DNA of 64,000 bases from Candidatus Zhuqueibacterota bacterium (GCA_016214895.1 JACRMR010000002.1:1-64000), one strand, 5' to 3'. Shown: positions 5,389 through 60,843, counted from the stretch's first letter. The notes: a model not told the origin generated them from the letters alone. Numbers and translations: made by a program.

Positions 5389-5422
5389 TTGACAGCTTGC
5401 GTACACAACCTGAAGATGGAGT
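5389..5422 (+). promoter_or_regulatory. possible promoter (-35 TTGACA at 5389-5394) upstream of 5433
   Basis: Perfect -35 hexamer. The -10 is weak (GAAGAT). Confidence 0.3.
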
Positions 5423-5432
5423 GATATACCCC

Positions 5433-12308: not shown

Positions 12309-12451
12309 GGCGCGGCTGACGGATTCCGGGCGGGTAACGCGCGTCGGCGAGGTGATGGTCGCGCACGCTGATCGCCGAGGAGGGACTGTGTCCCTGCCGG
12401 AATCAACCGCCCATCGCGTCCAGGTGACTTCCGCAATTCCGGCGGAGTATG

Positions 12452-12556
12452 GAGACCCCGCTCGGGGTTTGAAGTGAGACATCGGCCGTGCACTGGGGAG
12501 AATTCCCGACGGGGCACTTGGAGACAAGTGTCGCCAAGAGCATTCCGGGCGGATGA
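12452..12556 (-). repeat. dispersed copy, in inverted orientation, of the 2181-2450 repeat family, located in the icd 3' UTR
   Basis: The reverse complement gcgacacttgtctccaagtgccccgtcggga...gtgcacg...ccccgagcggggtc aligns with unit 2 (gcggcacttgtctccaagtgccccgctcggga...gtgcacg...ccgagcgggtc). The 20-nt core is identical and both hairpins are preserved. Confidence 0.65.
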
Positions 12557-12610
12557 TTGGTAGTGTGCGATTGAGACTTATGCGGTAACGCGCACGGCGG
12601 GAAAAGAAAA

Positions 12611-12647
12611 CCCCTCACGAGGTGAGGGGAGGCTGTTTTGTTTTTGA
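12611..12647 (+). terminator. rho-independent terminator of icd (CCCCTCAC-gag-GTGAGGGG + TGTTTTGTTTTTG)
   Basis: Perfect 8-bp GC stem followed by a U-rich tract. Confidence 0.75.
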
Positions 12648-12873
12648 TCGGTTGCGGACTCGTTGTCCCGCGCCTGATCGTCGTTTGTTTGCGCTACTTC
12701 GCAGACGGGAGATCTCTATCTCTCCGCTTTTTGTTACGCTGTTGCGGGCACTTTGGTTTCCGGTCCCCCGATAATTCACTTCACTCGGGTTCCTTACCTG
12801 TATAGACGTTGAAATGCTTTTCTTGTTGCAGGCTCCCCCACGTTTTTCGAGCCGCCACCGCGAGGACTTCATC

Positions 12874-15800
12874 ATGAATCGATGCCATTGGCTCCCCTTT
12901 GCACTACTCCTGTTGCTGCTCGTGAGCCTGCCGCTGGAACTGCTCGCCGGCCCCGGGAAGATTGCCGGTACCATTCTTGACGAAAACAAGGAGGGAGTGA
13001 TCGGCGCGGCCGTCATGATTGTGCAGACCAATCAGGGCAGCGTGGCGAATATTCAGGGCGACTATACCATCCTGAATGTCCAGCCCGGAAGTTACACGGT
13101 GCGGATCAGCTCCGTCGGCTACGGCACACAGGTGTTTAATGGCGTGACGGTCAGCGGCGACCTGACGACGACGTTGAACGCCACCCTGCGGGATGAGGCG
13201 ATTCAGGTCGAGGAGCAGGAGATCATCTATAAGGCGCCGACGGTCAAGGCCGACGTGCCGAACAAGGAGATCCGCTTTAATCAGGATGACTTCAAGTCGC
13301 GCGCCGTGACCAATATCAAGGATATGCTCACGAAGCAGCCGGGCTTCAAGGTTGACCAGGAAGGCGCGATTCACGTGCGCGGCGGTCGCGAACACGAGGT
13401 GCTGGTCGCCGTGGACGGCCAAGCCTACCGCGATCCGCTGGTCAACAGCTCGAAGCGACTGGTAAACTTCTCCGCGCTGAACGTGGAGGAAGTAGAAGTC
13501 CTGACCGGCGGCGACGCGCGCTACGGCGGTTTCCAGGCGGCGCTCATCAATGTGACCACACCGGAAGGCTCAATGAAGGACTACGCGGGGACCGCCGAGT
13601 GGCGAACCGACCGCGCGTTCCAGACCTACAGCTTCAACACCGACCAGTACGATTACTCCCTGTCGGGACCGGTGCCGTTTGCCGACAAATTGCTCGGCGC
13701 GAAGAAGCTGAGCTTCTTCGCCTCGGGCACGTCCAAGCTGACCAACACTTATACGCCATACAGCGTGCAGCGCGACGCCAACGATTACCTCGGCGTCGGC
13801 CTGGATGTCCCCGAACGGCAGTCCAATGACTACTCCGCGTTCCTCAAGCTGACCTACCGGCTGTCGGGAAACAAGAAGATGAACTTGTCCTACAACCGCG
13901 ATTACTCGCTGTGGGACATCTACCCGGACGGCGAAGCGGCTATCGGCGGCAATTACGGCTGGACCTATAAGTACAACGTCGCCAATCGCCCGTACGCGAA
14001 GAACACGCGGCAGTCCGTCAATCTGGCCTTCTCGCACAACATTTCGAAGAATACGTTCTACGAGATCACGGTCGGCAATTTCCGCACGACGACGCAAATC
14101 CGGCCGCGCGGCAAGAACCCGGACCAATTCACGCTCGCGGATGACGTCGAAGACCAGAGCGTGCTCGACGGAGCCACGGTCGGCGACACGGATAACAATG
14201 GCTTCCTCGACGGCTATATCGACGCCAACCGCAATGGACGCTATGATGGTACCGGTGAAGGTTACGAGGACATCAACCAGAACGGACAGTGGGACCGCGG
14301 CGAAGATTTCGTGGACCTGAACGGCAACGGACTTTACGATGCCGCGGAGCCGTGGATCGATCGCGCCAACCCGCAGGGGGTCAACAATCTCGGCGTGTTC
14401 GACGCGTGGGATCCGTTCGTTGACCTGAACGGGAACGGCCGCTGGGATCCGGCCGAACCGCAGCTGTCCGAGCAGGACTGGAACCAGAACGGCGCGTGGG
14501 ACGGCGAACGCTTCAACGATGCCAACGGCAACGGTCGCTATGACGGCGCCGGCGAGGGTTACGACGACAAGAACCGCAGCGGTGACATCGATCGCAAAGA
14601 TCTCTACGCCATGAGCCAGGACGACCCGGACGTTCCCGAACCTTACGTGGATGGCGACTACTGGCACGATACCGGAGAGCCGTTCATCGATGAGCCGAAC
14701 GCGTTCGGTTATTACAACGGACGCTGGGATGAGGGTGAGGTGTTCTTTGATCTCCCGTCGTCCTATAATGGCCCGTTCTCGCCGCGCTTCCAGGCGTCGT
14801 TGAACAACCGCTATGACGCGCCCAACGGAGCGTTTGACGAGTACGAATTGTGGACCTATCCGGCCGCGGAAGCTTATGGGTCCGATCCGCGCTTCCCCGT
14901 GCTATATACGTGGGAGGACGTGCGCTTCGGAATTCGCGAGTTCGGGGCGCAGTGGATCAACGCTCCTGTGGATCTCGTGACGGGGTACCCGGGGTACTTC
15001 CTGTATGATCCCGATCATTCCACCTGGACCAACGCGACGCTGGATGACCGGGATCGACCGATTGCGGATTTCCCCGATCGCGTGTGGAATTCAGCCGATG
15101 CGGGAACCGATTCCCGCCCCGGTCAGCTCGAAGCCTACGAAGACTACAACGGCAACGGCGTCGCGGATCGCTTCACGGACGGCTTCCTGAATCCGGGCTG
15201 GTGGGATGCCAACGCCTTCTGGCAGAACCGCGAAGCCACCGAGTGGGCCGGGAAGATGGACGTGACCAGCCAGGTCAACAAGTTCCACGAGTTGAAGTCG
15301 GGGATCGAGATGAAGTTCCGTGACCTGGACATGCAGTCGATCATCGGACCGGATCAGCCGTACGATAACCCCGATGTCCCGCTGCCGCCGGACGCGCCGT
15401 ATGCGGGCCGCGGAGCCAAGCGCGACTTCTATACCCAGCAGCCGACCGAAGGCTCGCTCTATTTTCAGGACAAGATGGAATTCGAGGGCATGATCGTGCG
15501 CGCGGGGCTGCGCAGCGACTTCATCGTACAATCCGATGAATTTCTGCAGGCCACGCAGGACCTGATCGATGCCGAACAGCCGGGCGCATTGCTGGCGAAA
15601 CGCGGCCGGTTCGTAGTCGCGCCCCGGCTCGGAATTTCGCACCCGATTTCCACCAAGTCCAAGCTGTATTTCAACTACGGCCACTACTATCAGGCGCCGT
15701 CGTTCGAGTACTTCTATCGCTCGGCAACCGTGAACATCGCGCCCAACACCGAAATCGGGAACCCGAATCTTGAGTACGAAAAGACGGTTTCCTACGAATT

Positions 15801-16578
15801 GGGCGTGAACACGGAGTTCACCGAGGATTGGGTGATCGACGTGGCCGGTTATTACCGTGACGTGTATAATCAGATCGGAACGGTGGAACAGCGCGTCGGA
15901 CCGGTCACGCTGAACCGCTACTTCAATCTCGGTTACGGTCGCGCCCGCGGGTTCGAATTTTCACTGTCGAAGAAGCTGTCCAATATGTGGGCACTCACGG
16001 CCAACTACGACTTCTCCTATGCTTACGGCAAGGAATCGGCGGCCACCGAGGGCCTCACGCAACGGCAGAACTCGCAGGTGGAAAACCGCGACGAGCATCC
16101 GCTGGGCTGGGATGAGACCCACCGCGTCTCGGCGTTCCTCACGTTGTTAATGGGCCAGAAGGACAAGAAGCATCTGTTCGGGCTGCGGCTGCCGTCCGAC
16201 TGGCTGGCGACGGCCGAGTATTCCTACGGCTCGGGCCTGCCCTACACACCGTCAACGTACACCACGGGCAAGAAGGCCAATCTGATTCTGGCCAACTCGG
16301 CCCGCTATCCGATGACGACCCGGACCGACCTGAAGGTTGACAAGTTCTGGACATTGAACCGGAATCTGAAGCTCACGACCGGCGTTGAAATCTATAATCT
16401 GTTCGACAAGAAGAACGTCCGCGAGCTGTACGCCGAAACGGGCAACGCCCACGACGCCTCGCATAAAGAGAATCAGGACGCGCGCGAAGACGACAATCTG
16501 GGCAAGGATGTCGATCACAATCCGCGCAACTACGGGTCGCCGCGCCAGATCATGCTGCACTTCCGGCTGGCCTTCTAA
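12874..16578 (+). CDS. SusC/RagA-like TonB-dependent outer-membrane receptor (CarboxypepD_reg + plug + barrel) with a ~200-aa insertion of thrombospondin-type-3-like calcium-binding repeats
   Basis: Signal peptide MNRCHWLPFALLLLLLVSLPLELLA. CarboxypepD_reg-like GKIAGTILDE...GSYTVRISSVGY. Plug motifs (IHVRGGREHEVLVAVDGQ, LTGGDARYGGFQAALINV). About nine DxNGNGxYD repeats. Terminal aromatic ...HFRLAF. Confidence 0.8.
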   Translation: MNRCHWLPFALLLLLLVSLPLELLAGPGKIAGTILDENKEGVIGAAVMIVQTNQGSVANIQGDYTILNVQPGSYTVRISSVGYGTQVFNGVTVSGDLTTTLNATLRDEAIQVEEQEIIYKAPTVKADVPNKEIRFNQDDFKSRAVTNIKDMLTKQPGFKVDQEGAIHVRGGREHEVLVAVDGQAYRDPLVNSSKRLVNFSALNVEEVEVLTGGDARYGGFQAALINVTTPEGSMKDYAGTAEWRTDRAFQTYSFNTDQYDYSLSGPVPFADKLLGAKKLSFFASGTSKLTNTYTPYSVQRDANDYLGVGLDVPERQSNDYSAFLKLTYRLSGNKKMNLSYNRDYSLWDIYPDGEAAIGGNYGWTYKYNVANRPYAKNTRQSVNLAFSHNISKNTFYEITVGNFRTTTQIRPRGKNPDQFTLADDVEDQSVLDGATVGDTDNNGFLDGYIDANRNGRYDGTGEGYEDINQNGQWDRGEDFVDLNGNGLYDAAEPWIDRANPQGVNNLGVFDAWDPFVDLNGNGRWDPAEPQLSEQDWNQNGAWDGERFNDANGNGRYDGAGEGYDDKNRSGDIDRKDLYAMSQDDPDVPEPYVDGDYWHDTGEPFIDEPNAFGYYNGRWDEGEVFFDLPSSYNGPFSPRFQASLNNRYDAPNGAFDEYELWTYPAAEAYGSDPRFPVLYTWEDVRFGIREFGAQWINAPVDLVTGYPGYFLYDPDHSTWTNATLDDRDRPIADFPDRVWNSADAGTDSRPGQLEAYEDYNGNGVADRFTDGFLNPGWWDANAFWQNREATEWAGKMDVTSQVNKFHELKSGIEMKFRDLDMQSIIGPDQPYDNPDVPLPPDAPYAGRGAKRDFYTQQPTEGSLYFQDKMEFEGMIVRAGLRSDFIVQSDEFLQATQDLIDAEQPGALLAKRGRFVVAPRLGISHPISTKSKLYFNYGHYYQAPSFEYFYRSATVNIAPNTEIGNPNLEYEKTVSYELGVNTEFTEDWVIDVAGYYRDVYNQIGTVEQRVGPVTLNRYFNLGYGRARGFEFSLSKKLSNMWALTANYDFSYAYGKESAATEGLTQRQNSQVENRDEHPLGWDETHRVSAFLTLLMGQKDKKHLFGLRLPSDWLATAEYSYGSGLPYTPSTYTTGKKANLILANSARYPMTTRTDLKVDKFWTLNRNLKLTTGVEIYNLFDKKNVRELYAETGNAHDASHKENQDAREDDNLGKDVDHNPRNYGSPRQIMLHFRLAF

Positions 16579-16687
16579 GCCCATGACAGCGCGCAGTGCA
16601 TCCCCCAATCAGGTACGCTTGCAAACCTGCAATTCACCCCAGTGCGGTCATCCGGCCGGCACTCACGGTCCCGATATCCGGAGTAGA

Positions 16688-18748
16688 ATGGCAAATATGA
16701 CGAAATTTTTCGGCTCGCTTGGGAGCCTGCTCCTGGTCGGTCTGCTGATCGGCTGCACCAGCCCGACGTCCCACAAACCGGAGCCGCCCACCCCGAAGCG
16801 CGACGGCGTACCGCTCGACCGAACGCTGACGGAGATCTTCCCGTCCGCCACGGGCAAGCCGTGGTTGATCGATTCCGACTGGGTGATCGGCCCGGACGAT
16901 GTAGTGCGGATTCACGAGGGTACGGAGTTCATCTTCGACATCAATCCCAGCGACACAATCGGCCCGGTGTGGGTGGACGTGCAAGGTCAGTTGATCGCCG
17001 ATGGCTCGCCCGACGCGCCGATTATCTTCACGACGGCGTTCGTGGACAAGGATCGCGGGCACTGGCGCGGCTTCAAGCTGCGCAACCCCGATCCGGCGCG
17101 CGGGTCCGTGTTCGAACATTGCGTGTTTGAATACGGCGCCTATTTCGACGTGGATACGGTGTCCGATCGCGGGACGGACGCTCAGCTCTATCGCGGGATG
17201 CTCTCGATCATCAACAGCAGCCCGCGCATCGAACGCTGCGTCGTGTACTACAATCAGAACAACGCGGTGTTTATCAGCGGCCAGAACGCGCGGCCGACGA
17301 TCCGGTTCAACATTTTCACGGAAAACGACGCCTCGGCGGTCCGCGCGGATACGCTCGTCGATCTGGACGAGATCGTGCTGGCCTACAACGACGTCGCGGA
17401 CAACTCGGCCATCGCGTTCCTGATGGGTTACGATAGCACGCGATTCGGCAAGTTCACGCAGGTGAATTCGAATCTGGATAGTTGCGACCAGTTCTTCAAC
17501 GTCGAGATCTCGCCGCTGTTTGTCGATGCGCCCAACGGCGATTTCGGGCTGCAACCCTGCTCGCCCGCGATCGATGCCGGTCCAACCGACTCGCCGCAAT
17601 TCAACGATGCGGACGGCACCCGGGCGGACATGGGGATCTCGCCCTATTTGCAATCGCCGGGCGAATTGCGCGGCGTGCTGGCGGGAACGGACATCGTGCT
17701 GGATCCGGCCGTTGCCTATCGCATGTCCTGCGATTTGCGCGTGAATTTCGGACAGACGCTGACGATCCCGGCGGGAACGACCATCGAAATCAACGACGTT
17801 TACGACATCGAAGCGTTCGGTCGAATCCGCTGCATGGGCACCGCCGACAACCCGGTGCGCTTCTGGCGGCAGGGCGGCACGAATTCGTGGGGGACGATGA
17901 CGATTCACGAAGTCGATAGCATGCAACGGCGGCCGGCACCGTGGACCTTCCCCTCCGAGTTCCGCTATACGGAATTCGTCAATTATCAATCGATCAACAT
18001 CGAGAAACCGGGCGCGGTGTTTGAAGCCTGCAAATTCGAGCGCGGCTTCTTCTATGGCGCCTGGGTGAATCTGCCCAGCAAGAACATCGAAGACAGTGTC
18101 AATTTCAGCTATTGCGACTTCCTCGAGTGCGGAGCCTTCGGGCTGGTGATCGCGGAAAGCCCGGCCGGAGTCCGCAACTGCAAAGTCGTGCACGCGAAGG
18201 GGCGCGGGATCACCGTGTGGAAGGGCGGCGACAAGGTCGCGATCTCGAATTGCATCGTCGATGCGTGCAGCACGAGCGGCATCGTCATCGAAGTGCACGC
18301 GCATCCGCTGATTCTCAACAACTCCATTCGCGATTGCGGTTACTACGGACTCCAGATTACCGACCAATCCCGGCCGGTGGTGATGAACACGATCGTCGTC
18401 AACTCGGCACGCTATGGGGTTTACACCTACGCCAGCGCGCTTCCGTATCTGGACTACAACTGCTTCTTCAATAACTACACGCTGGGGAATCAGAATCTGA
18501 ATTTCGGTCCGCCGGAATCCGGCGGCGATACGTTGGATTCGTTCAACGACGTCACGGATAATCCGCTGCTCGGCGCCGATTTCCAGCTGGGAGCCGGTTC
18601 CCCGGCCATTGACGCCGGCAATCCCGAAGCGCCATACAACGACGTGGACGCGTCCCGCAATGACATGGGCGCCTTCGGCGGCCCGCAGGGCGGCCGCGTC
18701 GGTCGGTTCAGTCTGCCCCGCAACCCGCACACCTTGGCCGCCAAATGA
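16688..18748 (+). CDS. right-handed parallel beta-helix repeat lipoprotein
   Basis: Lipobox LLIGC after MANMTKFFGSLGSLLLVG. Repeated beta-helix signatures (NNSIRDCGYYGLQITDQS, CIVDACSTSGIVIEV, NCKVVHAKGRGITV). No terminator between the upstream gene and this one. Confidence 0.7.
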   Translation: MANMTKFFGSLGSLLLVGLLIGCTSPTSHKPEPPTPKRDGVPLDRTLTEIFPSATGKPWLIDSDWVIGPDDVVRIHEGTEFIFDINPSDTIGPVWVDVQGQLIADGSPDAPIIFTTAFVDKDRGHWRGFKLRNPDPARGSVFEHCVFEYGAYFDVDTVSDRGTDAQLYRGMLSIINSSPRIERCVVYYNQNNAVFISGQNARPTIRFNIFTENDASAVRADTLVDLDEIVLAYNDVADNSAIAFLMGYDSTRFGKFTQVNSNLDSCDQFFNVEISPLFVDAPNGDFGLQPCSPAIDAGPTDSPQFNDADGTRADMGISPYLQSPGELRGVLAGTDIVLDPAVAYRMSCDLRVNFGQTLTIPAGTTIEINDVYDIEAFGRIRCMGTADNPVRFWRQGGTNSWGTMTIHEVDSMQRRPAPWTFPSEFRYTEFVNYQSINIEKPGAVFEACKFERGFFYGAWVNLPSKNIEDSVNFSYCDFLECGAFGLVIAESPAGVRNCKVVHAKGRGITVWKGGDKVAISNCIVDACSTSGIVIEVHAHPLILNNSIRDCGYYGLQITDQSRPVVMNTIVVNSARYGVYTYASALPYLDYNCFFNNYTLGNQNLNFGPPESGGDTLDSFNDVTDNPLLGADFQLGAGSPAIDAGNPEAPYNDVDASRNDMGAFGGPQGGRVGRFSLPRNPHTLAAK

Positions 18749-18810
18749 GTCATCGATTCGAACAAACGGGCTGGCACGCTGCTTTGAGTCCGATGGGAGG
18801 TTTGACTTCT

Positions 18811-21756
18811 ATGCACAGGAACATGAAGGTCGGTCTCATGCTGGCCGCCCTCGCGCTCGGCTGGTCGTCAACGGCGCTCGCGCGCAATGACGCCTTCAAT
18901 CCGGATCGCGTACGCGGCCCGGTCCGGCCCGCGGTCAGCAACCCGAATATTGAGAACCGCGTCCACGACAAAGGCCGGATGTGCATGAACGTCACCAACT
19001 ACGGGTACTTCGGCAACTCCGACCCGTCACAGGACGCCCTGCCCAACCCGTGCCCGCCGGGCAACTGGGCCGAACAGTGCGAGTATCCCTGCGGCGGCGA
19101 TCAGAACTATCTGTATCAGGCCGGGCTGTGGATCGGCGCACTGATTGTCGAAGAGGGCTTTGAAACCAAGCGCGTCAGCGTCGGCGTGGACGGCTGGCTG
19201 AATCCGTCGGTCAACGAGTTCTGGCCGGGGGAAGGCTCGGCGGGCGGAATTACCGAGCGGTCGATCCGTCCCGGTTCGACGAACTGTCTCGGCGTGATGG
19301 TCAGCGATCCCGCGGCCGTCTCCGACCAGGATTTCATCGCCGCGATGGCCGATACACTGCGCGACGATTTCTGGCTGACCGACGATCCGGTCGATGGTAA
19401 ACACAGGCCGCTCGGTCTGAAAATTACGCAGACATCCTATTCCTTCAGTCAGGCGTTCGCGGAAGATTTCATCCTGATTGACTACGAAATCGAGAATATC
19501 GCCTCGAACTTCCTGAAGAACGTGTATGTCGGTCTGTATGTCGATGCCGATGTCGGCGACAAGAACCTCTTCAACGAGCATACAGACGACATCTGCGGGT
19601 TCCGCCGGTCCACACGCGAGGCGTCGCCGAATGGCGAAGACGTGCTCGTGCCGATCGACGTGGCCTGGATTGCCGATAACGACGGGCGTCCGTCAACGCG
19701 GGGCAGCGGAGCGCTGACGTGTCCGAATGTGACCGGAACGCGAGTAATTCGCGGGCCGAATCCGCGGCTCGAGACCTCATTCAATTGGTGGATATCGAAC
19801 AGCGACCAGTCATTGGACTTCGGACCGTTCTGGGATATCCACTGCGATAATCCGCTCGATCCGCTCTATTGGAACCGCACGCTCGGCACCCCGATGGGTG
19901 ACGAACACAAGTATCAGATTCTGAGCAATACGGAGTTTGATCCGGATCAACTCTGGGTCTGCGATATGGCCGCCGCGCCGCCGCAAATCATCGATCCGCC
20001 GGGAGGGAATCCCGATGATACCGTCCGAACGTGGGCCGTGTGCGACCCGTCCACCGAACAAGCGGATATCTGCAACGGCTACGATACGCGCTACCTGCTG
20101 TCCTGGGGGCCGCTCGGGATTCGTGACTATCAGGACCAGACCGGTCGGTGGATCTACCGCCTGAATCCGGGCGAGAAGTTCAATATGACCATCGCCTACG
20201 TCGGCGGCGAGAATTTCCACGATCCGACGCATCCGCAGAACGGCAATGAAGTCATCGACTCCACGCTGTTCAATTTCGCCGATCTCGAATTGAATGCGCG
20301 GTGGTCGAAAGATGTCTATGACAACCGCGGGACCGATACCCCGCAGTGGGACTGGGGTAACGATCACATTGACGGCACGGCGGATGATGACGGCAGCGAG
20401 GGCGATGGCATCCTGGATACCGGTGACGGCTGGTACGGGGAAGACGTCGGGAATGACGGCCTCTACACCGAAGTGCCCTCCGGTTTCCGGCCCGGTATCG
20501 ACAGCGTCGTCGTGACCTATTGGAAGGGTACGCGCTGGGAGAAATTTGCCGGATATTATCGCGGTCCGGATGCGGGTGAACGTGACGGCATCATTTCCGC
20601 CGTCAATAACAGCTTCTTGTTCCCGGAAACGGGAGGCGCGGGCACTGAAGACGGAATTATTCCCTTCGATCTGGCCTACGAGCATCCCGTCTATCGTTAC
20701 TGGGATATGGGGTGGATGAGCGGGAACGGGTTGCTGGACCAAGGGGACGGTTTGCCGGACTTCACGGGTCCGCCTCCGCCGCGACTCCCCGCGCTGTTGC
20801 ATTGTGTGGAGAACACCAGCAACGCTTCCGCGCATCTGGGCGGCGTGGTGCGATCTCAACAGAACGGCACTTGCTTTACCGGCGGTCTGGGCTATGAACT
20901 CCTCAACACGGCGGTCACCCTGCGCTGGTCCAAACGCGCATCGGAAGACCCGGACTACGTGGATCCGTTCTCCCGCGTGCAGGACTTTGAAGGCTATCGT
21001 ATTCATCGCGGCACGACACCGTTGGATACGTCGTTCTCCTTGCTCGCCGAATACGACCTGATCGACTTTGCCTACTTCTCGTCCACGGATTCGATGATGA
21101 CGATTCCGATCGTCACCACGCGTCCCGATACGCTGCCGCAGGATACGACGATTCTCGAAGTTCAGGGCACGCTCAAGCCCTATGGCAACAACACCGGACT
21201 GCAAGATATCATCCGCGACGACTCGACGTATCAATTCACCGAGTCCGCGCATCCGCTGGCGCCGCTGTACTACTCGGTGACGGCGTTCGACTTCGGAGAT
21301 CCGAAATCCGGGTTAGGCTCGCTGGAAACCCGTCCGACCGCCAACGCCGTGCTGCTGGCTCCTGCCGGCACACCCAAAGAGCCGGTCAAGGTCGTGCCGA
21401 ATCCCTACCGTGCGTATGAAGACTACACGGTGTCCTCGCTGGGAATCAGCTGGGAAAATCAGAATGACGGGACCAAAGACTTCTACGCGCAGCAGGATCG
21501 TCGCATCGAGTTCATCAATCTGCCGGAGAAGTGCCTGATCCGCGTGTTCACGACCGCCGGGGACCTGGTCCAGATTATTCCTCACAATACCGACGGTGAC
21601 AAGAGCGCCTGGGCGTCGATGGCTTCTGAACGCTGGGACCTCAACTCGCGCAATCGTCAACAGGTCGTTTCGGGGATCTACCTGTACTCCGTCGAAAACC
21701 TGACCGACGGTCATGGTTACGAAATCGAGACCGGCAAATTCGTTATCATCCGCTAA
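18811..21756 (+). CDS. large secreted protein (~980 aa) with a CTD-like C-terminal beta-sandwich; candidate PorU-like partner of the downstream PorV-family protein
   Basis: Signal peptide MHRNMKVGLMLAALALGWSSTALA. C-terminus ...CLIRVFTTAGDLVQII...SGIYLYSVENLTDGHGYEIETGKFVIIR resembles a T9SS CTD. It sits immediately upstream of the PorV-like gene. The PorU role is inference from synteny only. The ATG at 18745, overlapping the upstream stop (ATGA), is an alternative start. Confidence 0.55.
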   Translation: MHRNMKVGLMLAALALGWSSTALARNDAFNPDRVRGPVRPAVSNPNIENRVHDKGRMCMNVTNYGYFGNSDPSQDALPNPCPPGNWAEQCEYPCGGDQNYLYQAGLWIGALIVEEGFETKRVSVGVDGWLNPSVNEFWPGEGSAGGITERSIRPGSTNCLGVMVSDPAAVSDQDFIAAMADTLRDDFWLTDDPVDGKHRPLGLKITQTSYSFSQAFAEDFILIDYEIENIASNFLKNVYVGLYVDADVGDKNLFNEHTDDICGFRRSTREASPNGEDVLVPIDVAWIADNDGRPSTRGSGALTCPNVTGTRVIRGPNPRLETSFNWWISNSDQSLDFGPFWDIHCDNPLDPLYWNRTLGTPMGDEHKYQILSNTEFDPDQLWVCDMAAAPPQIIDPPGGNPDDTVRTWAVCDPSTEQADICNGYDTRYLLSWGPLGIRDYQDQTGRWIYRLNPGEKFNMTIAYVGGENFHDPTHPQNGNEVIDSTLFNFADLELNARWSKDVYDNRGTDTPQWDWGNDHIDGTADDDGSEGDGILDTGDGWYGEDVGNDGLYTEVPSGFRPGIDSVVVTYWKGTRWEKFAGYYRGPDAGERDGIISAVNNSFLFPETGGAGTEDGIIPFDLAYEHPVYRYWDMGWMSGNGLLDQGDGLPDFTGPPPPRLPALLHCVENTSNASAHLGGVVRSQQNGTCFTGGLGYELLNTAVTLRWSKRASEDPDYVDPFSRVQDFEGYRIHRGTTPLDTSFSLLAEYDLIDFAYFSSTDSMMTIPIVTTRPDTLPQDTTILEVQGTLKPYGNNTGLQDIIRDDSTYQFTESAHPLAPLYYSVTAFDFGDPKSGLGSLETRPTANAVLLAPAGTPKEPVKVVPNPYRAYEDYTVSSLGISWENQNDGTKDFYAQQDRRIEFINLPEKCLIRVFTTAGDLVQIIPHNTDGDKSAWASMASERWDLNSRNRQQVVSGIYLYSVENLTDGHGYEIETGKFVIIR

Positions 21757-21821
21757 GCCGTGGCCAATCCCCTCAACCCAATCAACGCTCCTGCATCCTT
21801 GATATACGGAAGGATTCTCCC

Positions 21822-22907
21822 ATGATGCGATGGACTTCCCTTGCTCTTCTTGCCGCGCTGTGTCTCCTGCCGGAATTCGGCTGGGCACAGGCCAAAGTGG
21901 GAACCGCCGGTGTGCAGTTTCTTAAGATCAGCCCGAGCTGCCGAGCGGTCGGAATGGGCGAAGCGTATGTGGCCGTCGCCAACGACGCCTCCGCTATTTT
22001 CCATAACCCGGGCGCGCTGGCCCGGATCGCGGAACCGCATGCCACGCTCAGCTATATCGATTACGCCGCGGGTTTGCAGTATGGCTATATCGGAATGTCG
22101 CAACCGATGAAGAAACTGAACGGAACGGTCGCCGCCTCCGTGGTCTATCTGACCACGGACGAAATGGAAGAGACGACGTCCCTCCAGCCACAAGGTACGG
22201 GCCGGACGTTCACCGCGGGCGACATGGCCGTCGGACTCAGCTACAGCCAGCAACTGACGAACAAGTTCTCGGTCGGCGGAACGCTGAAAGTCATCAATGA
22301 ATCGCTCGCCGACAAGTCCGCGACCGGTTGGGGCGCCGATCTCGGGACGTACTATTACACCGGCTGGCGCAGCGTCCGGCTGGCGATGTTGACCTCGAAT
22401 TTCGGTCCGGACATGAACTTCGTGGACAATCCGTTCCCGCTGCCGATGAATTTCACGTTCGGCATGGCCGGCTACATCATGAACTCCGGTCCGCGCGATT
22501 TCTGGACCGGCTCCGATTCGGTCGGTTGCCATGCCGTGCTGCTGTCGGGCGCCTGGTCGCATCCCAACGACAACCTTGAAGTCTATAATGTCGGGCTCGA
22601 ATACGGTTTCGCGAATTCGGCCTTCCTGCGCTTCGGCAAAAAGATAAACGGCCTGACCCGCAAAGGTTGGGACGAATATCAGCGCAAGATCGAAGCCGGG
22701 GAAGACGCGACGAGCGAGAACCCGTTTTATGAGTATCCGCTGTTCTCGAAAACCGGAAAGTTCTTCCAGAACGGCGCCTCGGTCGGCGCCGGACTGAAGT
22801 TCGACAAGATAGGACTGACCATTGACTATGCCTTCAACGGCATCGCCTATCTCGACAACATCCACCGGTTTTCGCTCGGGTACCGTTTCAACCGACCGCT
22901 GTTTTGA
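21822..22907 (+). CDS. PorV/PorQ-family T9SS outer-membrane beta-barrel protein (361 aa)
   Basis: Signal peptide. N-terminal motif AGVQFLKISPSCRAVGMGEAYVAVANDASAIFHNPGALA parallels the PorV family signature PFLxIxPDARsGGMGDAGVA...NPA. C-terminal aromatic end. Confidence 0.7.
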   Translation: MMRWTSLALLAALCLLPEFGWAQAKVGTAGVQFLKISPSCRAVGMGEAYVAVANDASAIFHNPGALARIAEPHATLSYIDYAAGLQYGYIGMSQPMKKLNGTVAASVVYLTTDEMEETTSLQPQGTGRTFTAGDMAVGLSYSQQLTNKFSVGGTLKVINESLADKSATGWGADLGTYYYTGWRSVRLAMLTSNFGPDMNFVDNPFPLPMNFTFGMAGYIMNSGPRDFWTGSDSVGCHAVLLSGAWSHPNDNLEVYNVGLEYGFANSAFLRFGKKINGLTRKGWDEYQRKIEAGEDATSENPFYEYPLFSKTGKFFQNGASVGAGLKFDKIGLTIDYAFNGIAYLDNIHRFSLGYRFNRPLF

Positions 22908-22930
22908 TCCGCGACCTCAGGAGATCCCCC

Positions 22931-25141
22931 ATGAGAAACACAAAATACTTCCTTGCGGCTTGCGCGGTGCTGATTGCGGTATTCGTCTTTGATGGCTGTG
23001 ACCGCCTAACCGGCGACGCGAACCCGAATGCCGCCCCCGACGTCCGATTCGTGAATACCCCGATGGATACGTCCACCTTCAATTATGCCCCGATCGTGTA
23101 CTGGATTGGTTACGATTCGGACGGTCTGATCAGCGGCTACGAGTACTACGACGACTCGACCGAAGCCGCGCGCGAGGCCTATCGGCAGGATCGCACGACG
23201 CCGGGAACCTTGAAAGCCTACATCGACGCGATCCCGGCGGACGACTGGGTGCGCACGTCACGCACGCAAGAGACGATCTATCTCGGAACGGCCGCCGGAG
23301 AAACGAAGGAACACGTCTTTATCGTGCGGGCGATCGACGACAAAGAAGCGCGCTCGCTGCCCAAAGTGCGCACGTATTTCCGCACCAACGTAGCGCCCGA
23401 CCCGCCGCTCGTCAAGTGGTCGCAGTCGGCGGACGAGGTCGCATTTGCCCGCGTTATCGTGATTGCGGAGACGCTGTTCTGGGGCGATACGGTCAGCACG
23501 ACCTATCCCGGAATCGAGTTTCTCTGGCAAGGCAATGATGCCGACAGCCGCGACCTCAATATCATTCCCCTCGAATTCAGCTATGCGCTCGTGCGCTTGC
23601 CGAACGACACGATCCCGCACCCGATCTACGGTGACAGCCTGAATATTGTCGGCTACGAAGGCGGCTGGAGTCCGTGGTCGGAGGACGCCTCCGTTGTGTT
23701 CTTTGGCCAGGAAACGGGTGACTACGTGCTAACGTTGCGTGTGCGCGATGACGGCTTGACCCTGTGCCATCCTGATTCCTTCGCCTACGCGTATTTCAAG
23801 GCCATCAAGCCGACGTTCGCGTACCAGTTGCTGATCGTAGACGAAACGTCGATCCCCACCAACAACGAACTCAATCTGTTCGGCGCGCGCAATGCCGACT
23901 CCGTGATGGCCTTCTACTACGACCTCGTGCCGCAGGCGTTTCACATCGCCGAGCTGTTCAGGTCGATGGCGTATGATTCGCTGATCCCGACGCCGTTTGA
24001 GGACTACGAGATTCAACCGGCCGGAAGTGGCGCGCAGGTGCAGGAGTTCGACAACAAGAACGTCAACGATGGACACACGATTCCGTATGGCTTGATCGGA
24101 CAGTTCAAGTGGGTGTGGGTCATTCACGATAACAATGCCAACAATACGGATGACATCGGTGTGGACGCCCGTCAGCACGTGATGGACCGTTACCTCCGAG
24201 TCGGCGGGCAGATCATGCTGTCGGGACGACGCCTGTTTTCCGGTGGGTACCTGCTGGCCGAAGGCGGCGAACAACCGCTTTCCGCGCAGGACAACGGCAC
24301 GTTCTTCACGACGTTTTTCAACCTCAATACGGTGTCCGCCAAGTCGCAATGGGGGACCGCGCAACCGCCACCCGAATTCTCGGGAGCTACGACGTCGAAC
24401 ACCTTCCTGCCCGACCTGAAGGTTGACACCGCGGTCTGTGCATCGCTCAACTGGCGGGGTCGGCATTTCCCGAATCTCACGGAAATCGACTACTTCAGCC
24501 GGGCGACCAGTCAGACCAGCTACGACCTTTCGCTCACGCTCTACGATTACAACTCGGCAACCCGTGATGCGAGCTACGACACCACGAACGTGGACTGCAG
24601 AGTGCACGCGTCCTCGCCGTCCGTGGCCTACCTGCAGCCGGCGCCCGGCCACAACATCATTTTCCAGGTGGACCGGATTTTCAACGTGACGCGGGATGTC
24701 TATGCGCAGTTCCTCTGGATGGACCATGGCGGACCGTTTGACTCCGCCAGAATCGTTTGTTCGACACCCGAGCAGGCGGGTGCGTGGCTGACCAGCGATT
24801 CGCTTCAAGTTGACTACGTTTTCAGCCCGATCTCGGTGAATCACAACAAGCCGGTGGCCTGTCACTTCCAGAAGCATGAAGTGGTGCAGACTCGTGATCC
24901 GCGAAATCCGAACGCCTTTCTCTTCCAGTTGGCCGTGTTGTACCGGACATCGCTATTTACCTTCCCGTTCTCCTTCCTGGATACCACCGAGCAGGAGATC
25001 CTGCCGCAATTCGGACCGATGAATCCGGTAGCGTATATGGTCGCGAACGAGATCATCAACTTCAATTTGCCGCGAAATCTCGGTGATTTCAATTTTGATT
25101 TCAGCCGAGACCGCCCCGGTCCGGTCGGCCCGGTGCGATGA
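22931..25141 (+). CDS. hypothetical lipoprotein (737 aa), last gene of the 12-kb operon
   Basis: SD AGGAGA 10 nt upstream. Signal peptide MRNTKYFLAACAVLIAVFVFDGC with Cys. No recognisable catalytic motif. Confidence 0.7.
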   Translation: MRNTKYFLAACAVLIAVFVFDGCDRLTGDANPNAAPDVRFVNTPMDTSTFNYAPIVYWIGYDSDGLISGYEYYDDSTEAAREAYRQDRTTPGTLKAYIDAIPADDWVRTSRTQETIYLGTAAGETKEHVFIVRAIDDKEARSLPKVRTYFRTNVAPDPPLVKWSQSADEVAFARVIVIAETLFWGDTVSTTYPGIEFLWQGNDADSRDLNIIPLEFSYALVRLPNDTIPHPIYGDSLNIVGYEGGWSPWSEDASVVFFGQETGDYVLTLRVRDDGLTLCHPDSFAYAYFKAIKPTFAYQLLIVDETSIPTNNELNLFGARNADSVMAFYYDLVPQAFHIAELFRSMAYDSLIPTPFEDYEIQPAGSGAQVQEFDNKNVNDGHTIPYGLIGQFKWVWVIHDNNANNTDDIGVDARQHVMDRYLRVGGQIMLSGRRLFSGGYLLAEGGEQPLSAQDNGTFFTTFFNLNTVSAKSQWGTAQPPPEFSGATTSNTFLPDLKVDTAVCASLNWRGRHFPNLTEIDYFSRATSQTSYDLSLTLYDYNSATRDASYDTTNVDCRVHASSPSVAYLQPAPGHNIIFQVDRIFNVTRDVYAQFLWMDHGGPFDSARIVCSTPEQAGAWLTSDSLQVDYVFSPISVNHNKPVACHFQKHEVVQTRDPRNPNAFLFQLAVLYRTSLFTFPFSFLDTTEQEILPQFGPMNPVAYMVANEIINFNLPRNLGDFNFDFSRDRPGPVGPVR

Positions 25142-25172
25142 GGGCGCCTACGCCGTAACAGACGACGAACAA

Positions 25173-25209
25173 AGGCCGCGGGCAACAGCCCCGCGGCCTC
25201 TCTCTTCAT
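25173..25209 (+). terminator. hairpin GGCCGCGGG-caacag-CCCGCGGCC followed by TCTCTCTTCAT; probable operon-end terminator
   Basis: 9-bp perfect stem. The U-tract is interrupted by C, hence moderate confidence. Confidence 0.45.
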
Positions 25210-25219
25210 AAACTCCGGG

Positions 25220-26722
25220 ATGATGCTGAAGCGCTGGAATACGTATCGTGTGCTATGGTCGCTGCTCGTGCTGCCGGCCGCATGGTTTGGACCGGAGCAC
25301 GGGAGTTGGTCGCTGGAGGATCAGTTGCGCCGATTGGACTTCTGCACGCACGGCGACTCGCTCGCGCGGACGCATAATTCCGTGGTCGTCGCGGATCTGG
25401 GAGTGACACCGCTGGCGACGGCCTTGCATCGCGGCGCGCACGCGTTCGGGGAGCGCCCGTATCGCCTGCTCTTTGCGATAATTGCGGTCGGCGCCGGGTG
25501 GCTCTGTGCCGCCGGCGGTTATGCCGCGGCCTGGTTGCTGATCCCGCTCACCCTGTCGGCGATCATCCCCGGTGAATACGGGCTGACGCTACTGCTGGTC
25601 TGGCCGTTACTCTATCTGCTGACGCGCGACAAGCGTCCGGGAGCGGCTCAGATCGCCGTGGCAGCCGTGGCCGGCGCCGTGGCCACCGCGCTGTCGCCGC
25701 TGCTAATTCCCGTCATCGTAATTCTGCTGTTTCAGGCGGGAGCCCGCGGCTGGTCCCGCGAGGCGATCATCGCGGCAGGCTGCTGGGGCATCGTGGCTTC
25801 TTTCCTCAGCGCGGAATTCGCGTCGCACCTGCCGCTCTTTGCCGCTCCGTCCGGCGAGAGCATCTTGATGAACTTGAGACGGGTCGCGGGAATGGATTCT
25901 GACCCAGTTTGGTCGGGAGTCGTGCTTGCGAGCTGGCTGATGGGCACGTTGCTCATGACTCGCAACGGGACGGTTCCGCGAACGGCCGGCGGCGGGTTGC
26001 TTGCCGTCGGCTTCGGTGTATTTCAGCACCGGTTGTGGAGTGCAGCCTTGACCTCTGGGCAGATTGACGGGCAGATCTCGCTGCTCGCGCTTGCGCCGTG
26101 GATCCTGCTCGCGGGATTGCCGCCCTATCGACGGCGTCCGACAGGCGTCGCGCTGCTGCTGGCACTCCTGTTTGGCGTGCTGGCATTGCGGATACCCGAA
26201 GACCCGCAGGCACTGCCGGTGGCTGCCGCCGTTCTGCTGCCGCTCTGGCTCATCGATCTCAAAAAAAATGGCCGCGATCGCGGCCCGGCATTTGTCAGTT
26301 TGTTGCTGCTGACCGCGCTGAATACGGCCGCGTTTTCCGCCATCGTATATGACCGCGCGCAGGCCACAGCGGATCACGTCCGGCTGCTCGAACCCCGAGC
26401 GGGTTCACCGCTCGTCATTTCACCGCCTAAACTCGGCTTCGAGGTGGCGCCGCTCTGGCGGCAGCGGGAGATCTACGGTGCGCATGACCGCGATCAACTG
26501 CTGGCGACCGCGCTCGAGTTTCGCCAGACCCACGTGGACACGTTCTATCTCCTGCTCGATGCGCACTATCCGCTGTATGTCGAGACCTTCCCGGGTGGAA
26601 AACCCGCCTGGCCGACGCAGATGACCGTTACCAACGGCGGTACAATCCATCGCACGCAGCGCCGGCTCTACCAACTCGTCACCAACCCGACGGATTCACT
26701 CTGGCAGCAGTGGGAGCAGTGA
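25220..26722 (+). CDS. polytopic integral membrane protein (500 aa), possibly GT-C-type glycosyltransferase-like; hypothetical
   Basis: About 10 predicted hydrophobic helices. No soluble catalytic motif recognised. Confidence 0.65.
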   Translation: MMLKRWNTYRVLWSLLVLPAAWFGPEHGSWSLEDQLRRLDFCTHGDSLARTHNSVVVADLGVTPLATALHRGAHAFGERPYRLLFAIIAVGAGWLCAAGGYAAAWLLIPLTLSAIIPGEYGLTLLLVWPLLYLLTRDKRPGAAQIAVAAVAGAVATALSPLLIPVIVILLFQAGARGWSREAIIAAGCWGIVASFLSAEFASHLPLFAAPSGESILMNLRRVAGMDSDPVWSGVVLASWLMGTLLMTRNGTVPRTAGGGLLAVGFGVFQHRLWSAALTSGQIDGQISLLALAPWILLAGLPPYRRRPTGVALLLALLFGVLALRIPEDPQALPVAAAVLLPLWLIDLKKNGRDRGPAFVSLLLLTALNTAAFSAIVYDRAQATADHVRLLEPRAGSPLVISPPKLGFEVAPLWRQREIYGAHDRDQLLATALEFRQTHVDTFYLLLDAHYPLYVETFPGGKPAWPTQMTVTNGGTIHRTQRRLYQLVTNPTDSLWQQWEQ

Positions 26723-40295: not shown

Positions 40296-40572
40296 CTGGG
40301 AGGGGGTACGGTTCTGTACGACAAGGAGCGGCGGTTCGCCGTCCGGACAATCCGGTTGAATATACCCTCCTTTCAATCAAGGGTCAAGGCTACACCCCTG
40401 TTTTCCACACGATGACAGACCCCCCGGGGCGCCCGGGTGTGCAAGATTTTCAGCCGCTTGGCTGGTAGCCAGACCCCAACCCAAAAGAGAGGCACAGCGT
40501 TCGCCGTGCCTCTCTTCATCAATGCCTCCGCCGCAGTCGCGCAAGAGTGCGGGGAGATGTGCTGCGCGTGGC

Positions 40573-43143: not shown

Positions 43144-43282
43144 GCGTCTTACCTCCTTGGTCATCCGTTGTCGGTAACCACTTCATACCTGCAATGCACG
43201 CGTATCTGTTTTCGGCGCCCGGGCCGACCCGCCGGAATCCGGACTACTTCTCCGAATCCCGCCTCCAAGGGTGGAGGGGGGG

Positions 43283-44857: not shown

Positions 44858-45035
44858 CGAGCAACGCTAACTGCTCGGCCCGTGACGGGGTTCGGTACTA
44901 AACTTCGCTCTATGCAACCGCTCCAAGTCGTTATCGCCGCGGTGTGCGGACGCTTGCAGTCCGGCGCCCGGCCTGCCGCTCAGGAACTCCTCGCTCGTGA
45001 TTCCGCACATCAATCACATCGCTTATGAGGCCCGT

Positions 45036-58267: not shown

Positions 58268-58307
58268 GACTTCCGCGCTATTCATGTTGGCCGCTTACTA
58301 CATCCCT

Positions 58308-59690: not shown

Positions 59691-59750
59691 GGTCGCGCAC
59701 GCCGTTGCCGCATGACCGATTTCAATCCACAATTCCGATAGGACGCCCCC

Positions 59751-60800: not shown

Positions 60801-60843
60801 GCCGGACCAGACACAAGCAACGTGACTCCGCGGAAACGACACT

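Follow-up and report, generated by a model that had tools for sequence, protein, structure and literature searches.

Organization of the locus

The window analysed here is a 64,000-nt stretch of DNA from a candidate division KSB1 MAG. Five + strand genes, G1 to G5, span 12874-25141. The features of the locus, counted from the first nucleotide of the window, are:

11058-12308, upstream gene icd (Iso_dh, 287.6 bits)
12309-12873, icd-G1 intergenic region, 565 nt
12611..12629, + strand, GC-rich hairpin (8-bp stem, 6 GC pairs) and T-run, GGCTGTTTTGTTTTT
12874-16578, + strand, G1, 1234 aa
14194..14553, + strand, aa 441-560 of G1, an insert rich in Asp, Asn and Gly whose Dx[DN]x[DNG] repeats are calcium-binding-like
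16688-18748, + strand, G2, 686 aa
18811-21756, + strand, G3, 981 aa
21376..21753, + strand, last ~125 aa of G3, an enlarged beta-sandwich similar to T9SS CTDs, its PNPY strand followed by ~30 inserted residues
21822-22907, + strand, G4, 361 aa
22931-25141, + strand, G5, 736 aa
25173..25209, + strand, GC-rich hairpin 3' of G5, with a weak U tract
25220..26722, + strand, G6, 500 aa, a hydrophobic, apparently polytopic membrane protein directly after the cluster

The gaps G1-G2, G2-G3, G3-G4 and G4-G5 measure 109, 62, 65 and 23 nt, in exact agreement with a preliminary description of the locus. The same description had seen no hairpin terminators between the genes, and our terminator scan of the region detected no terminator-like site within any of the four gaps. 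The 13 sites found in the whole region equal the shuffle expectation (11.2 +/- 3.6). Folded alone, the three longer gaps were no more structured than their shuffles (z +0.10, -0.41 and +0.63, respectively). The proposed boundaries were recovered as well. The hairpin at 12611-12629 is likely the icd terminator and the upstream boundary of the cluster. The downstream hairpin is real, the 78-nt stretch containing it (25142-25219) folding at -29.6 kcal/mol (z -2.5), and is possibly a terminator or an attenuator.

G6 begins on the same strand 10 nt beyond this hairpin. Family searches with G6 gave no match. It shares 29% identity over 448 aa with the same-position gene in a related MAG and is dissimilar to the downstream gene of a more distant lineage, so that G6 is possibly a lineage-specific extension of the cluster. 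A PMT_2/TPR glycosyltransferase is also encoded shortly downstream. The exact sequences of all five proteins are already in public collections. The starts used here are identical to those in GenBank for four of the five genes (MBI5058171, 73, 74 and 75); for G2 (MBI5058172, 683 aa) GenBank has a start three codons downstream of ours.

Proteins encoded by the cluster

G1 consists of a signal peptide, a CarboxypepD_reg domain, a Plug and a barrel. The Pfam matches were all above the cut-offs: CarbopepD_reg_2 with 57.5 bits, Plug with 36.6 bits (cut-off 23.9) and OMP_b-brl_3 with 69.4 bits (cut-off 27). The C-terminus reads ...FRLAF, and a candidate TonB-box strand, EEQEIIY, was spotted by eye in the stretch that joins the N-terminal domain to the Plug. 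The Plug and C-terminal beta-barrel expected of a TonB-dependent transporter are therefore both present, and GenBank names the protein (MBI5058171) 'TonB-dependent receptor'. All NCBIfam TBDR models scored below cut-off. SusC/RagA (TIGR04056) reached 60.9 bits against a cut-off of 368 and covered only the N-terminal 184 positions. The best conserved stretch of G1 is the Asp/Asn/Gly-rich insert, with a conservation of 0.77-0.82 versus about 0.45-0.7 in most other blocks (36 orthologues). D, N and G make up 42-50% of its residues. Dx[DN]x[DNG] motifs number seven within aa 421-700 and three in the remainder of the protein.

G2 encodes a right-handed beta-helix lipoprotein, as previously described (Pfam Beta_helix 94.1 and NosD 37.5 bits; NCBIfam choice-of-anchor Q domain 27.2 bits; lipobox LLIGC), and is fast evolving (28% median identity, 36 loci). 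G5, which had been called a 737-aa lipoprotein, is probably a lipoprotein of an unnamed family: the Cys of its signal peptide is kept in at least 90% of the homologues, and its lipobox, FDGC, is atypical. It has N-terminal Ig-like repeats with W.G.D.DG motifs and is 100% identical to HZB60_00155 in GenBank, from a candidate division KSB1 MAG. Searches of G5 against Pfam, NCBIfam and PDB gave no match; an orthologue weakly matched Y_Y_Y. The G5 profile retrieved 1100 cluster representatives at E<=1e-3. In a scan of ten remote representatives, Pfam domains were absent from eight, and the other two had only Ig-like/CTD domains. Neither G2 nor G5 had a SusD-like match in Pfam or NCBIfam.

G3 encodes a secreted protein of a conserved but unnamed family. 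Its layout comprises a signal peptide, a supersandwich (aa ~46-505), an Asp/Gly-rich middle (506-690), an Ig/FN3-like sandwich (691-855) and a CTD-like end (856-981). The predicted structure, of high confidence, is all-beta, with a supersandwich of the galactose-mutarotase type. In the model, aa ~46-505 match the supersandwich of GH15, GH65, GH94 and GH116 enzymes and of aldose epimerases. Supersandwich domains occur as purely structural modules too, e.g., in YidC, and for this reason glycan binding by G3 is only likely.

The preliminary description had called G3 PorU-like and suggested looking for a C25/gingipain-like fold with a Cys-His dyad. G3 would then be a sortase of this type acting with PorV, and the locus would combine an uptake system with an attachment complex of the T9SS. 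G3 indeed adjoins a PorV/PorQ-family gene and has a CTD-like end, its His198 is invariant and its Cys262 nearly so (at least 90% in 135 sequences), and PorU (6za2) gave a weak Foldseek match to the model (E 2.9e-4, TM 0.08). Against this, neither Peptidase_C25 nor any other Pfam or NCBIfam family was matched in 22 members of the G3 family. Both residues lie within the beta-supersandwich region of the confident all-beta model, not in a caspase-like alpha/beta fold, and G4 is far under the PorV equivalog cut-off. Given the all-beta model, the missing Peptidase_C25 match and the not fully invariant Cys262, we rejected G3 as a PorU-type C25 cysteine peptidase; the lack of a peptidase fold is among the grounds that the preliminary description itself had named for abandoning the idea. 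The sortase reading is highly improbable. A PorZ homologue was likewise rejected: the two beta-propeller domains that accompany a retained CTD in PorZ were not found, and the structural matches listed held neither a beta-propeller nor a PorZ entry.

With respect to its C-terminus, G3 resembles a T9SS CTD with modest statistical support. The motifs PNP[FY], LP, xVF..G.LV, SGIYL and GKxVxx[KR] are common to this end and to six Por_Secre_tail CTDs of the window, the model shows seven strands at the very end of the protein, and hhalign aligned it with the CTDs at P = 7.7e-4 over 52 columns. Por_Secre_tail was not matched in the Pfam or NCBIfam searches, a local CTD HMM gave a non-significant E of about 1, and CHU_C (type B) an E of 0.21. 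The CTD-like end noted previously is thus partly supported, by motifs and profile alignment and not by a significant CTD HMM or Pfam match. Within G3, conservation peaks in this domain (0.74 versus 0.62 overall). At least six other genes of the window matched Por_Secre_tail, four of them above the Pfam cut-off, showing that the host organism uses CTD-type secretion. No T9SS core genes were found among the ORFs scanned in the window.

G4 is a PorV/PorQ-family (FadL-like) outer-membrane barrel. It passed the cut-offs of the NCBIfam PorV/PorQ family model (NF033709, PorV_fam; 183.4 bits, cut-off 90) and of Pfam PorV (PF19572; 31.9 bits, cut-off 27), confirming the family assignment made earlier, and it matched the F. 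johnsoniae PorV chain 6h3i_F (E 1.7e-7). At the equivalog level it scored best on PorQ and stayed below all cut-offs (PorV, NF033710, 67.8 versus 250; PorQ, NF033711, 110.3 versus 220; PorV2, 83.7 versus 325). We therefore rejected G4 as PorV or PorQ proper, and the "porU-porV synteny" of the preliminary description was too specific.

Conservation across lineages

Among the related loci with sufficient flank, 28 of 29 had the order G1-G2-G3-G4-G5. They belong to KSB1, Calditrichota, Electryoneota and LCP-89. The cluster was also present in a MAG labelled Caldithrix abyssi in the collection. The locus is not patchy and holds the same genomic position across phyla, with one cluster copy per genome wherever two loci originated in the same genome. 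A second G3 paralogue was found in every genome examined, without conserved neighbours or an adjoining PorV-family partner. Median identity was 47-48% for G1, G3 and G4, which form the conserved core, and 28-30% for the faster evolving G2 and G5.

The icd gene was likewise syntenic (24 of 28 loci), and gene order in this clade can therefore persist without a functional link. The flanking genes other than icd vary, while the five cluster genes keep their co-orientation and tight spacing. They behave as one conserved, co-oriented unit, which most likely predates the split of KSB1, Calditrichota, Electryoneota and LCP-89 and has stayed together since. The preliminary description had drawn attention to the association of G4 and its large neighbour with a beta-helix lipoprotein and a barrel of the TonB-receptor type, and this association is thus kept across phylum-level distances. 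Strict adjacency is not universal: two genes intervene between G3 and G4 in LCP-89 genomes. Extra genes were inserted at differing positions in differing lineages, and the insertions encode similar kinds of proteins (beta-helix and CTD).

Relation to known systems and possible function

The closest analogues of the cluster are PorQ-PorZ and PorF. In the attachment complex of P. gingivalis, PorQ-PorZ and PorV-PorU likewise pair a PorV/PorQ-family 14-strand-type barrel with a large protein that is secreted to the surface. The sorting domain is longer than usual in PorZ and PorU, as is the CTD-like domain in G3 (the retained CTDs of PorU and PorZ have 108 and 96 aa, versus 67-88 aa for cleaved CTDs; PMC11285876), retention being shown for PorZ and PorU and only presumed for G3. 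PorZ binds carbohydrate, and the fold predicted for G3 is of a carbohydrate type. However, G3 lacks both the double beta-propeller of PorZ and the C25 peptidase domain of PorU, and G4 remains under the equivalog cut-offs of PorQ and PorV. Here, moreover, the pair is joined in one cluster by two lipoproteins and a TonB-receptor-like barrel, whereas the P. gingivalis loci of PorF (PG0534) and PorZ (PG1604) were identified separately, PorU (PG0026) and PorV (PG0027) being neighbours. The hosts of the attachment complex are Bacteroidota, that of the cluster is KSB1.

PorF is a TonB-receptor-like T9SS component, for which glycan import was proposed (PMC12704123). Like G1, PorF (PG0534/PGN_1437) has a signal peptide, CarbopepD_reg_2, a Plug and a large barrel, and it provides an earlier case in which such a barrel is functionally linked to late T9SS steps (PMC12704123). 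The TonB receptor-T9SS link is thus not unprecedented (PMC5445135, PMC12704123). G1 exceeds PorF by about 400 aa and has the conserved Asp/Asn/Gly-rich insert, and its barrel matches OMP_b-brl_3, which that of PorF does not. A profile of five PorF sequences (PMC7323717 supplement) gave 44 bits on G1, with 39.1 in the N-terminal 210 aa and 4.7 in the barrel, indicating no specific relationship beyond generic domains. G1 was therefore rejected as a PorF orthologue.

The SusC/SusD-type polysaccharide utilisation loci found in Bacteroidota, among them loci whose enzymes are secreted by the T9SS, also have a TonB transporter with an N-terminal carboxypeptidase-regulatory-like domain, followed by lipoproteins. 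Carbohydrate-type folds occur in both (beta-helix and supersandwich in the cluster). Unlike these patchy loci, the cluster keeps its genomic position across phyla and includes a PorV/PorQ-family gene. A SusC/RagA plus SusD system was rejected, because both a full-length SusC match and an adjacent SusD-like lipoprotein are absent. SprF/PorP adaptors (e.g., sprF-sprB in Flavobacterium johnsoniae) resemble the cluster in placing a small outer-membrane barrel beside the large CTD protein it serves. G4, however, is of the PorV/PorQ and not the PorP/SprF family, and the C-terminus of G3 resembles the type A CTDs that this genome encodes rather than type B cargo.

Our best explanation, with a probability of about 0.4, is that G1-G5 encode one outer-membrane/surface complex, in which a glycan-binding G3 would be anchored by G4 next to the TonB-dependent transporter and the two lipoproteins. 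The signal peptide would take G3 through the inner membrane, and the type IX-type system of the organism would take it through the outer one, using the CTD-like domain. This domain would stay on the protein and dock onto G4 as a dedicated barrel, like the CTDs of PorZ and PorU on PorQ and PorV. At the surface, the supersandwich would bind a glycan or glycoconjugate, and G2 and G5 would bind or process the same substrate, joined in other lineages by the additional beta-helix CTD protein. G1, with its conserved calcium-binding-like loop domain, would transport the product through the outer membrane, most probably in the inward direction. A secretion-plus-uptake module for a polymer, as suggested in the preliminary description, is plausible. 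Several points count against our best explanation: the CTD assignment is weak by standard models, the scanned ORFs of the window yielded no T9SS core gene, LCP-89 genomes have two genes between G3 and G4, and the second G3 paralogue has no PorV-family neighbour. The near-universal, single-copy, fixed-position conservation is also unlike that of typical nutrient-uptake loci.

Such conservation resembles that of a core function, and it is conceivable, if doubtful, that the cluster is a housekeeping secretion component and not a nutrient system, G3 and G4 presenting a surface glycan or glycolipid that anchors CTD cargo and G1 handling the glycan. Somewhat less probable is that it represents the T9SS surface-attachment stage outside Bacteroidota, with PorQ-like G4, G3 replacing PorZ and PorF-like G1 as one machine. 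Several observations favour the housekeeping secretion component: the best equivalog-level score of G4 on PorQ (110 bits); the carbohydrate-type fold and enlarged, conserved CTD-like domain of G3, functionally as in PorZ (PMC8754138, PMC11285876); the CarbopepD_reg_2, Plug and barrel architecture common to G1 and PorF; the similarity of the porF mutant phenotype to porQ/porZ mutants (PMC12704123); the density of CTD cargo genes in the window; and the glycosyltransferase and polytopic membrane protein shortly downstream. Against it stand the lack of homology between G3 and PorZ, the score of the PorF profile on G1, which comes nearly all from generic N-terminal domains, the lack of a sortase-like protein in the cluster, and the lack of counterparts of G2 and G5 in the attachment complex.

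The fixed position across lineages suggests an envelope function and would also suit a cluster that builds or anchors a surface structure (S-layer, fibril or exopolymer), with G1 as an anchoring or export barrel and G2, G3 and G5 as structural surface proteins. Beta-helix, Ig-like and calcium-binding-like repeats are frequent in surface and adhesin proteins, and Asp-rich loops are among the best conserved parts of both G1 and G3. The Plug of G1, however, is typical for TonB-dependent import and not export, and the cluster includes no polysaccharide export or synthesis gene, making this reading unlikely. Inherited neighbours without joint function, e.g., a TonB transporter and lipoprotein beside an unrelated T9SS cargo/carrier pair, would agree with the synteny of the unrelated housekeeping gene icd and with the lineage-dependent sites of insertion. 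The close spacing and co-orientation of the five genes amid changing flanks, the similar kind of the inserted genes and the equal conservation level of G1, G3 and G4 speak against this, and we regard it as improbable.

If the cluster is indeed an attachment-stage machine, it would provide the first genomic evidence on the role of the enigmatic PorF-type barrel. G3 and G5 would then be two new protein families acting as secretion-system components, G3 with a new fold class.

Layout and conservation of the five-gene unit

Five genes of the region form a conserved, co-oriented unit, whose core consists of a TonB-receptor-type barrel (G1), a PorV/PorQ-family barrel (G4) and a secreted carbohydrate-type-fold protein (G3) with an end resembling the T9SS C-terminal sorting domain (CTD). 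The open reading frames with the most plausible starts were:

12874-16578, + strand, G1, TonB-dependent-receptor-like barrel, 1234 aa
16688-18748, + strand, G2, beta-helix lipoprotein, 686 aa
18811-21756, + strand, G3, secreted protein with no family match, 981 aa
21822-22907, + strand, G4, PorV/PorQ-family barrel, 361 aa
22931-25141, + strand, G5, probable lipoprotein, 736 aa

All five sequences are present in public collections. In GenBank, four have identical starts (MBI5058171, 73, 74 and 75, from a candidate division KSB1 MAG), and G2 (MBI5058172) starts three codons later, giving 683 aa. The gaps of 109, 62, 65 and 23 nt given in the preliminary description matched the ORF calls exactly. 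The lack of internal terminators was also borne out, as a consensus scan placed no terminator-like site in the four gaps; the total count over the region equaled the shuffle expectation. The three longer gaps (109, 62 and 65 nt; the 23-nt gap was left out) folded no better than shuffles. The boundaries proposed earlier were recovered too, upstream as icd followed by a hairpin and T-run at 12611-12629, and downstream as a strong GC hairpin near 25173-25209 (z -2.5). The U tract of the latter is poor, and 10 nt past this hairpin begins a sixth gene on the same strand. The icd-to-G1 spacer (within region 11058-12873) measured 565 nt and gave no Rfam match; across the whole window, Rfam identified one tRNA only.

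The G3 family is large, tightly conserved and entirely “hypothetical”, with at least 890 full-length homologues, at 45–70% identity among the matches listed. With each species represented by one genome, 436 places encoding G3 homologues were counted. The titled records were from KSB1, Calditrichaeota/Caldithrix, AABM5-125-24 relatives (Candidatus Electryonea, Tariuqbacter, Hatepunaea) and LCP-89. Cluster genes adjoined G3 in 52 of the 80 loci fetched. G1, G2, G4 and G5 kept strand and order around G3 in 28 of the 29 sufficiently flanked loci. The icd gene lay directly upstream in 24 of 28 loci (L006-L083), across phylum-level distances. Median identity to the window proteins (36 loci) was 47–48% for G1, G3 and G4, 28–30% for G2 and G5, and 62% for icd. 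Many MAGs with this KSB1/Calditrichota-type cluster (L004-L020) go under the titles “uncultured Alphaproteobacteria bacterium”, “Candidatus Puniceispirillum sp.” or “uncultured Bacteroidaceae”; the public entries in question probably carry wrong labels.

In more distant lineages the cluster has two additional genes, missing from the window’s lineage and inserted between G4 and G5, except in LCP-89, where they separate G3 from G4. Both are seen in loci L045 and L056 (Por_Secre_tail is the Pfam model of the type A CTD):

L045 13847-18650 and L056 12794-17952 region, extra gene 1, 1388–1459-aa beta-helix, HYDIN-like Ig and Por_Secre_tail protein
L045 13847-18650 and L056 12794-17952 region, extra gene 2, 208–249-aa protein; of the two lineages scanned, L045 alone has TPR repeats in it

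A standalone G3 copy was found at 14 loci, with no conserved partner adjoining it. At least 14 genomes yielded two G3 paralogues, of which one belongs to the cluster and the other is standalone (or insufficiently flanked). The expected two ancient clades, cluster and standalone, did not emerge in a neighbour-joining tree (L004-L083), in which standalone copies were sister to same-group cluster copies in the KSB1-like, Calditrichia-like and LCP-89 groups. This grouping by lineage instead of type suggests repeated duplication or gene conversion of G3, not one ancient split.

Protein families and the predicted fold of G3

G1 matched the Pfam models CarbopepD_reg_2 (57.5 bits), Plug (36.6) and OMP_b-brl_3 (69.4), each above cut-off, and was below cut-off for all NCBIfam TonB-receptor models (SusC/RagA 60.9 vs 368). 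The cluster is not a SusC/SusD locus, for it lacks a SusD and G1 stays below the TIGR04056 cut-off. G2 has a lipobox (LIGC), indicating a lipoprotein, a right-handed beta-helix (94 bits) and a choice-of-anchor Q domain. The PorV-family barrel of the preliminary description stood at the family level, G4 exceeding the NCBIfam PorV/PorQ family (183.4 vs 90) and Pfam PorV (31.9 vs 27) cut-offs and matching the solved F. johnsoniae PorV with E 1.7e-7. It did not extend to PorV itself, as all equivalog scores were under cut-off (PorQ 110.3 vs 220, PorV2 83.7 vs 325, PorV 67.8 vs 250).

G5 matched nothing in Pfam, in NCBIfam or, when searched with a G5 profile, among PDB sequences. Its N-terminal part carries Ig-like repeats. 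It is probably a lipoprotein, with an atypical lipobox (FDGC) whose Cys is kept in at least 90% of homologues. Its family comprises ~1100 cluster representatives (E<=1e-3), and none of them was informative. A Pfam scan of ten remote relatives found Ig-like/CTD domains only, in two multidomain proteins.

G3 likewise matched no Pfam or NCBIfam model and no PDB sequence, a PDB profile search gave no meaningful result, and 22 family members searched against Pfam at E<=5 shared no consistent weak family. A structure prediction from a 22-sequence alignment was set aside (pLDDT 50.9), and one from 135 sequences was confident (pLDDT 87.6, pTM 0.86). The model is almost wholly beta, with a predicted galactose-mutarotase-like supersandwich at aa ~46-505. 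The preliminary description had read G3 and G4 as a PorU-like/PorV pair, for which a C25/gingipain-like fold and a Cys-His dyad were looked for in G3. Fold searches against PDB libraries named no caspase/C25-type peptidase or beta-propeller protein among the structural matches listed, and PorU (6za2) was a weak Foldseek hit (E 2.9e-4, probability 0.54, TM 0.08). His198 is invariant and Cys262 is not, both lying inside the supersandwich. Because of this fold and the failed dyad, we rejected the PorU-like peptidase, in line with the refuting condition set in the preliminary description; the cluster is not the PorU/PorV pair, and it is most improbable that G3 acts as a PorU-type sortase.

An Asp/Asn/Gly-rich insert with Dx[DN]x[DNG] repeats at aa ~441-560 of G1 (window 14194-14553) was that protein’s best conserved part among 36 orthologues, its best conserved residues forming DLNGNGxxD-type calcium-binding-like repeats. 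A conserved Asp/Gly-rich, calcium-binding-like stretch was also seen in G3 at aa 506-690 (window 20326-20880), with D539, G543, D545, G547 and D549 invariant. Judging from these motifs, G1 and G3 may form a shared calcium-dependent interface.

CTD proteins and other genes of the window

At least six other window genes matched Por_Secre_tail, four of them above the Pfam cut-off, indicating that the organism uses CTD-type secretion:

5397-7160, + strand, Por_Secre_tail gene (T9SS type A CTD)
28740-31802, + strand, Por_Secre_tail gene (T9SS type A CTD)
44997-46724, + strand, Por_Secre_tail gene (T9SS type A CTD)
36228-38213, - strand, Por_Secre_tail gene (T9SS type A CTD), CarboxypepD_reg-containing
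38277-40376, - strand, Por_Secre_tail gene (T9SS type A CTD), CarboxypepD_reg-containing tandem paralogue of the preceding
40573-43164, - strand, Por_Secre_tail gene (T9SS type A CTD)

One of the six encodes an S8 subtilase. Pfam and NCBIfam scans of ORFs from the 64-kb window found no T9SS core genes.

The last ~125 residues of G3 form a 7-strand sandwich in the predicted model. The CTD-like end described earlier was partly supported, by its hallmark motifs, which aligned with the six bona fide window CTDs at PNP[FY], LP, xVF..G.LV, SGIYL and GKxVxx[KR], with an insert of ~30 aa after the first strand, and by hhalign (P 7.7e-4 over 52 columns). Pfam gave no support (no hit; CHU_C E 0.21), nor did a profile built from the six window CTDs (E about 1), so that statistical support is modest. 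With its insert, this domain exceeds every other part of G3 in conservation (0.74 vs 0.62 for the whole protein). In P. gingivalis, cleaved CTDs are 67–88 aa long and poorly conserved, and the retained CTDs of PorZ and PorU have 96 and 108 aa, with an additional hairpin (PMC11285876). By analogy with the retained CTDs, we infer that the G3 domain stays on the protein and serves as an interface.

Further genes observed in the window were:

7255-8514 and 8501-9484, - strand, CFI-box-CTERM protein (NCBIfam 83.9 bits) and SPFH/Band 7 plus SHOCT protein, overlapping by 14 nt
25220-26722, + strand, directly downstream of the cluster, 500-aa hydrophobic, apparently polytopic membrane protein, no family match
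26736-28670, - strand, convergent, PMT_2 (dolichyl-phosphate-mannose-type glycosyltransferase) plus TPR protein
34779-35951, + strand, PopA-family porin-like protein, under cut-off (49 vs 150 bits)
53206-56984, + strand, FHA-domain protein (654 aa), overlapping by 4 nt a family-2 glycosyltransferase (605 aa) with a cellulose-synthase-like region
58284-63999, + strand, OEP, HlyD-type adaptor and AcrB-type RND efflux operon, continuing past the window end

The positions of the 500-aa membrane protein and the PMT_2 gene are both kept in the KSB1-like lineage, and some of the more distant genomes again have a PMT_2 gene close to the cluster. These two genes may tie a glycosylation function to the cluster. 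The FHA protein and the family-2 glycosyltransferase may be a regulated exopolysaccharide synthase pair.

Possible function of the cluster

PorZ docks on PorQ, and PorU on PorV (bioRxiv 10.1101/2020.05.13.094771; PMC8754138). By analogy, G3 would be exported by a T9SS-type system and kept docked on G4 by its C-terminal domain. On the surface it would bind a glycan or glycoconjugate, which G2 and G5, and in other lineages the extra beta-helix CTD protein, would bind or process. G1 would transport the product, probably inwards. We give this mechanism as a whole a probability of about 0.4.

The main alternative places the module itself within the T9SS, as a late stage analogous to PorF, PorZ and PorQ. 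PorF likewise combines CarbopepD_reg_2 with a Plug barrel, the porF mutant resembles porQ and porZ mutants, and PorF has been proposed as a glycan importer for A-LPS attachment (PMC12704123). However, a profile of PorF sequences from a published supplement scored 44 bits in total against G1 and 4.7 on the barrel, a similarity confined to generic N-terminal domains, and G1 was rejected as a PorF orthologue. We regard a late T9SS stage as unlikely. A role in assembling a surface structure seems slightly less probable again, and that the genes are a mere conserved neighbourhood is a reading to which we give little credence.

Returning to the docked glycan-binding module, its identifiable parts are each of a known kind: a TonB-dependent transporter, a PorV/PorQ barrel, a beta-helix lipoprotein and a CTD protein. 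The literature searched has no description of their combination, of its cross-phylum conservation outside Bacteroidota or of the G3 and G5 families, and nothing relevant in it connects the T9SS with KSB1, Calditrichaeota or Caldithrix. To our knowledge, T9SS biology comes almost solely from Bacteroidota. A MAG labelled Caldithrix abyssi DSM 13497 carries the cluster, so that experiments on a cultured species look feasible.

The predicted model gives the large “hypothetical” G3 family a first structural annotation. The cluster physically joins a TonB-dependent-type barrel, a PorV/PorQ-family barrel and a CTD-like carbohydrate-type-fold protein across several candidate phyla, and thus offers a concrete, testable hypothesis on a possible coupling of such barrels to PorV-family carriers. 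This bears on how CTD proteins are held at the surface in other phyla of the FCB group, and on the role of the TonB-receptor-like PorF.
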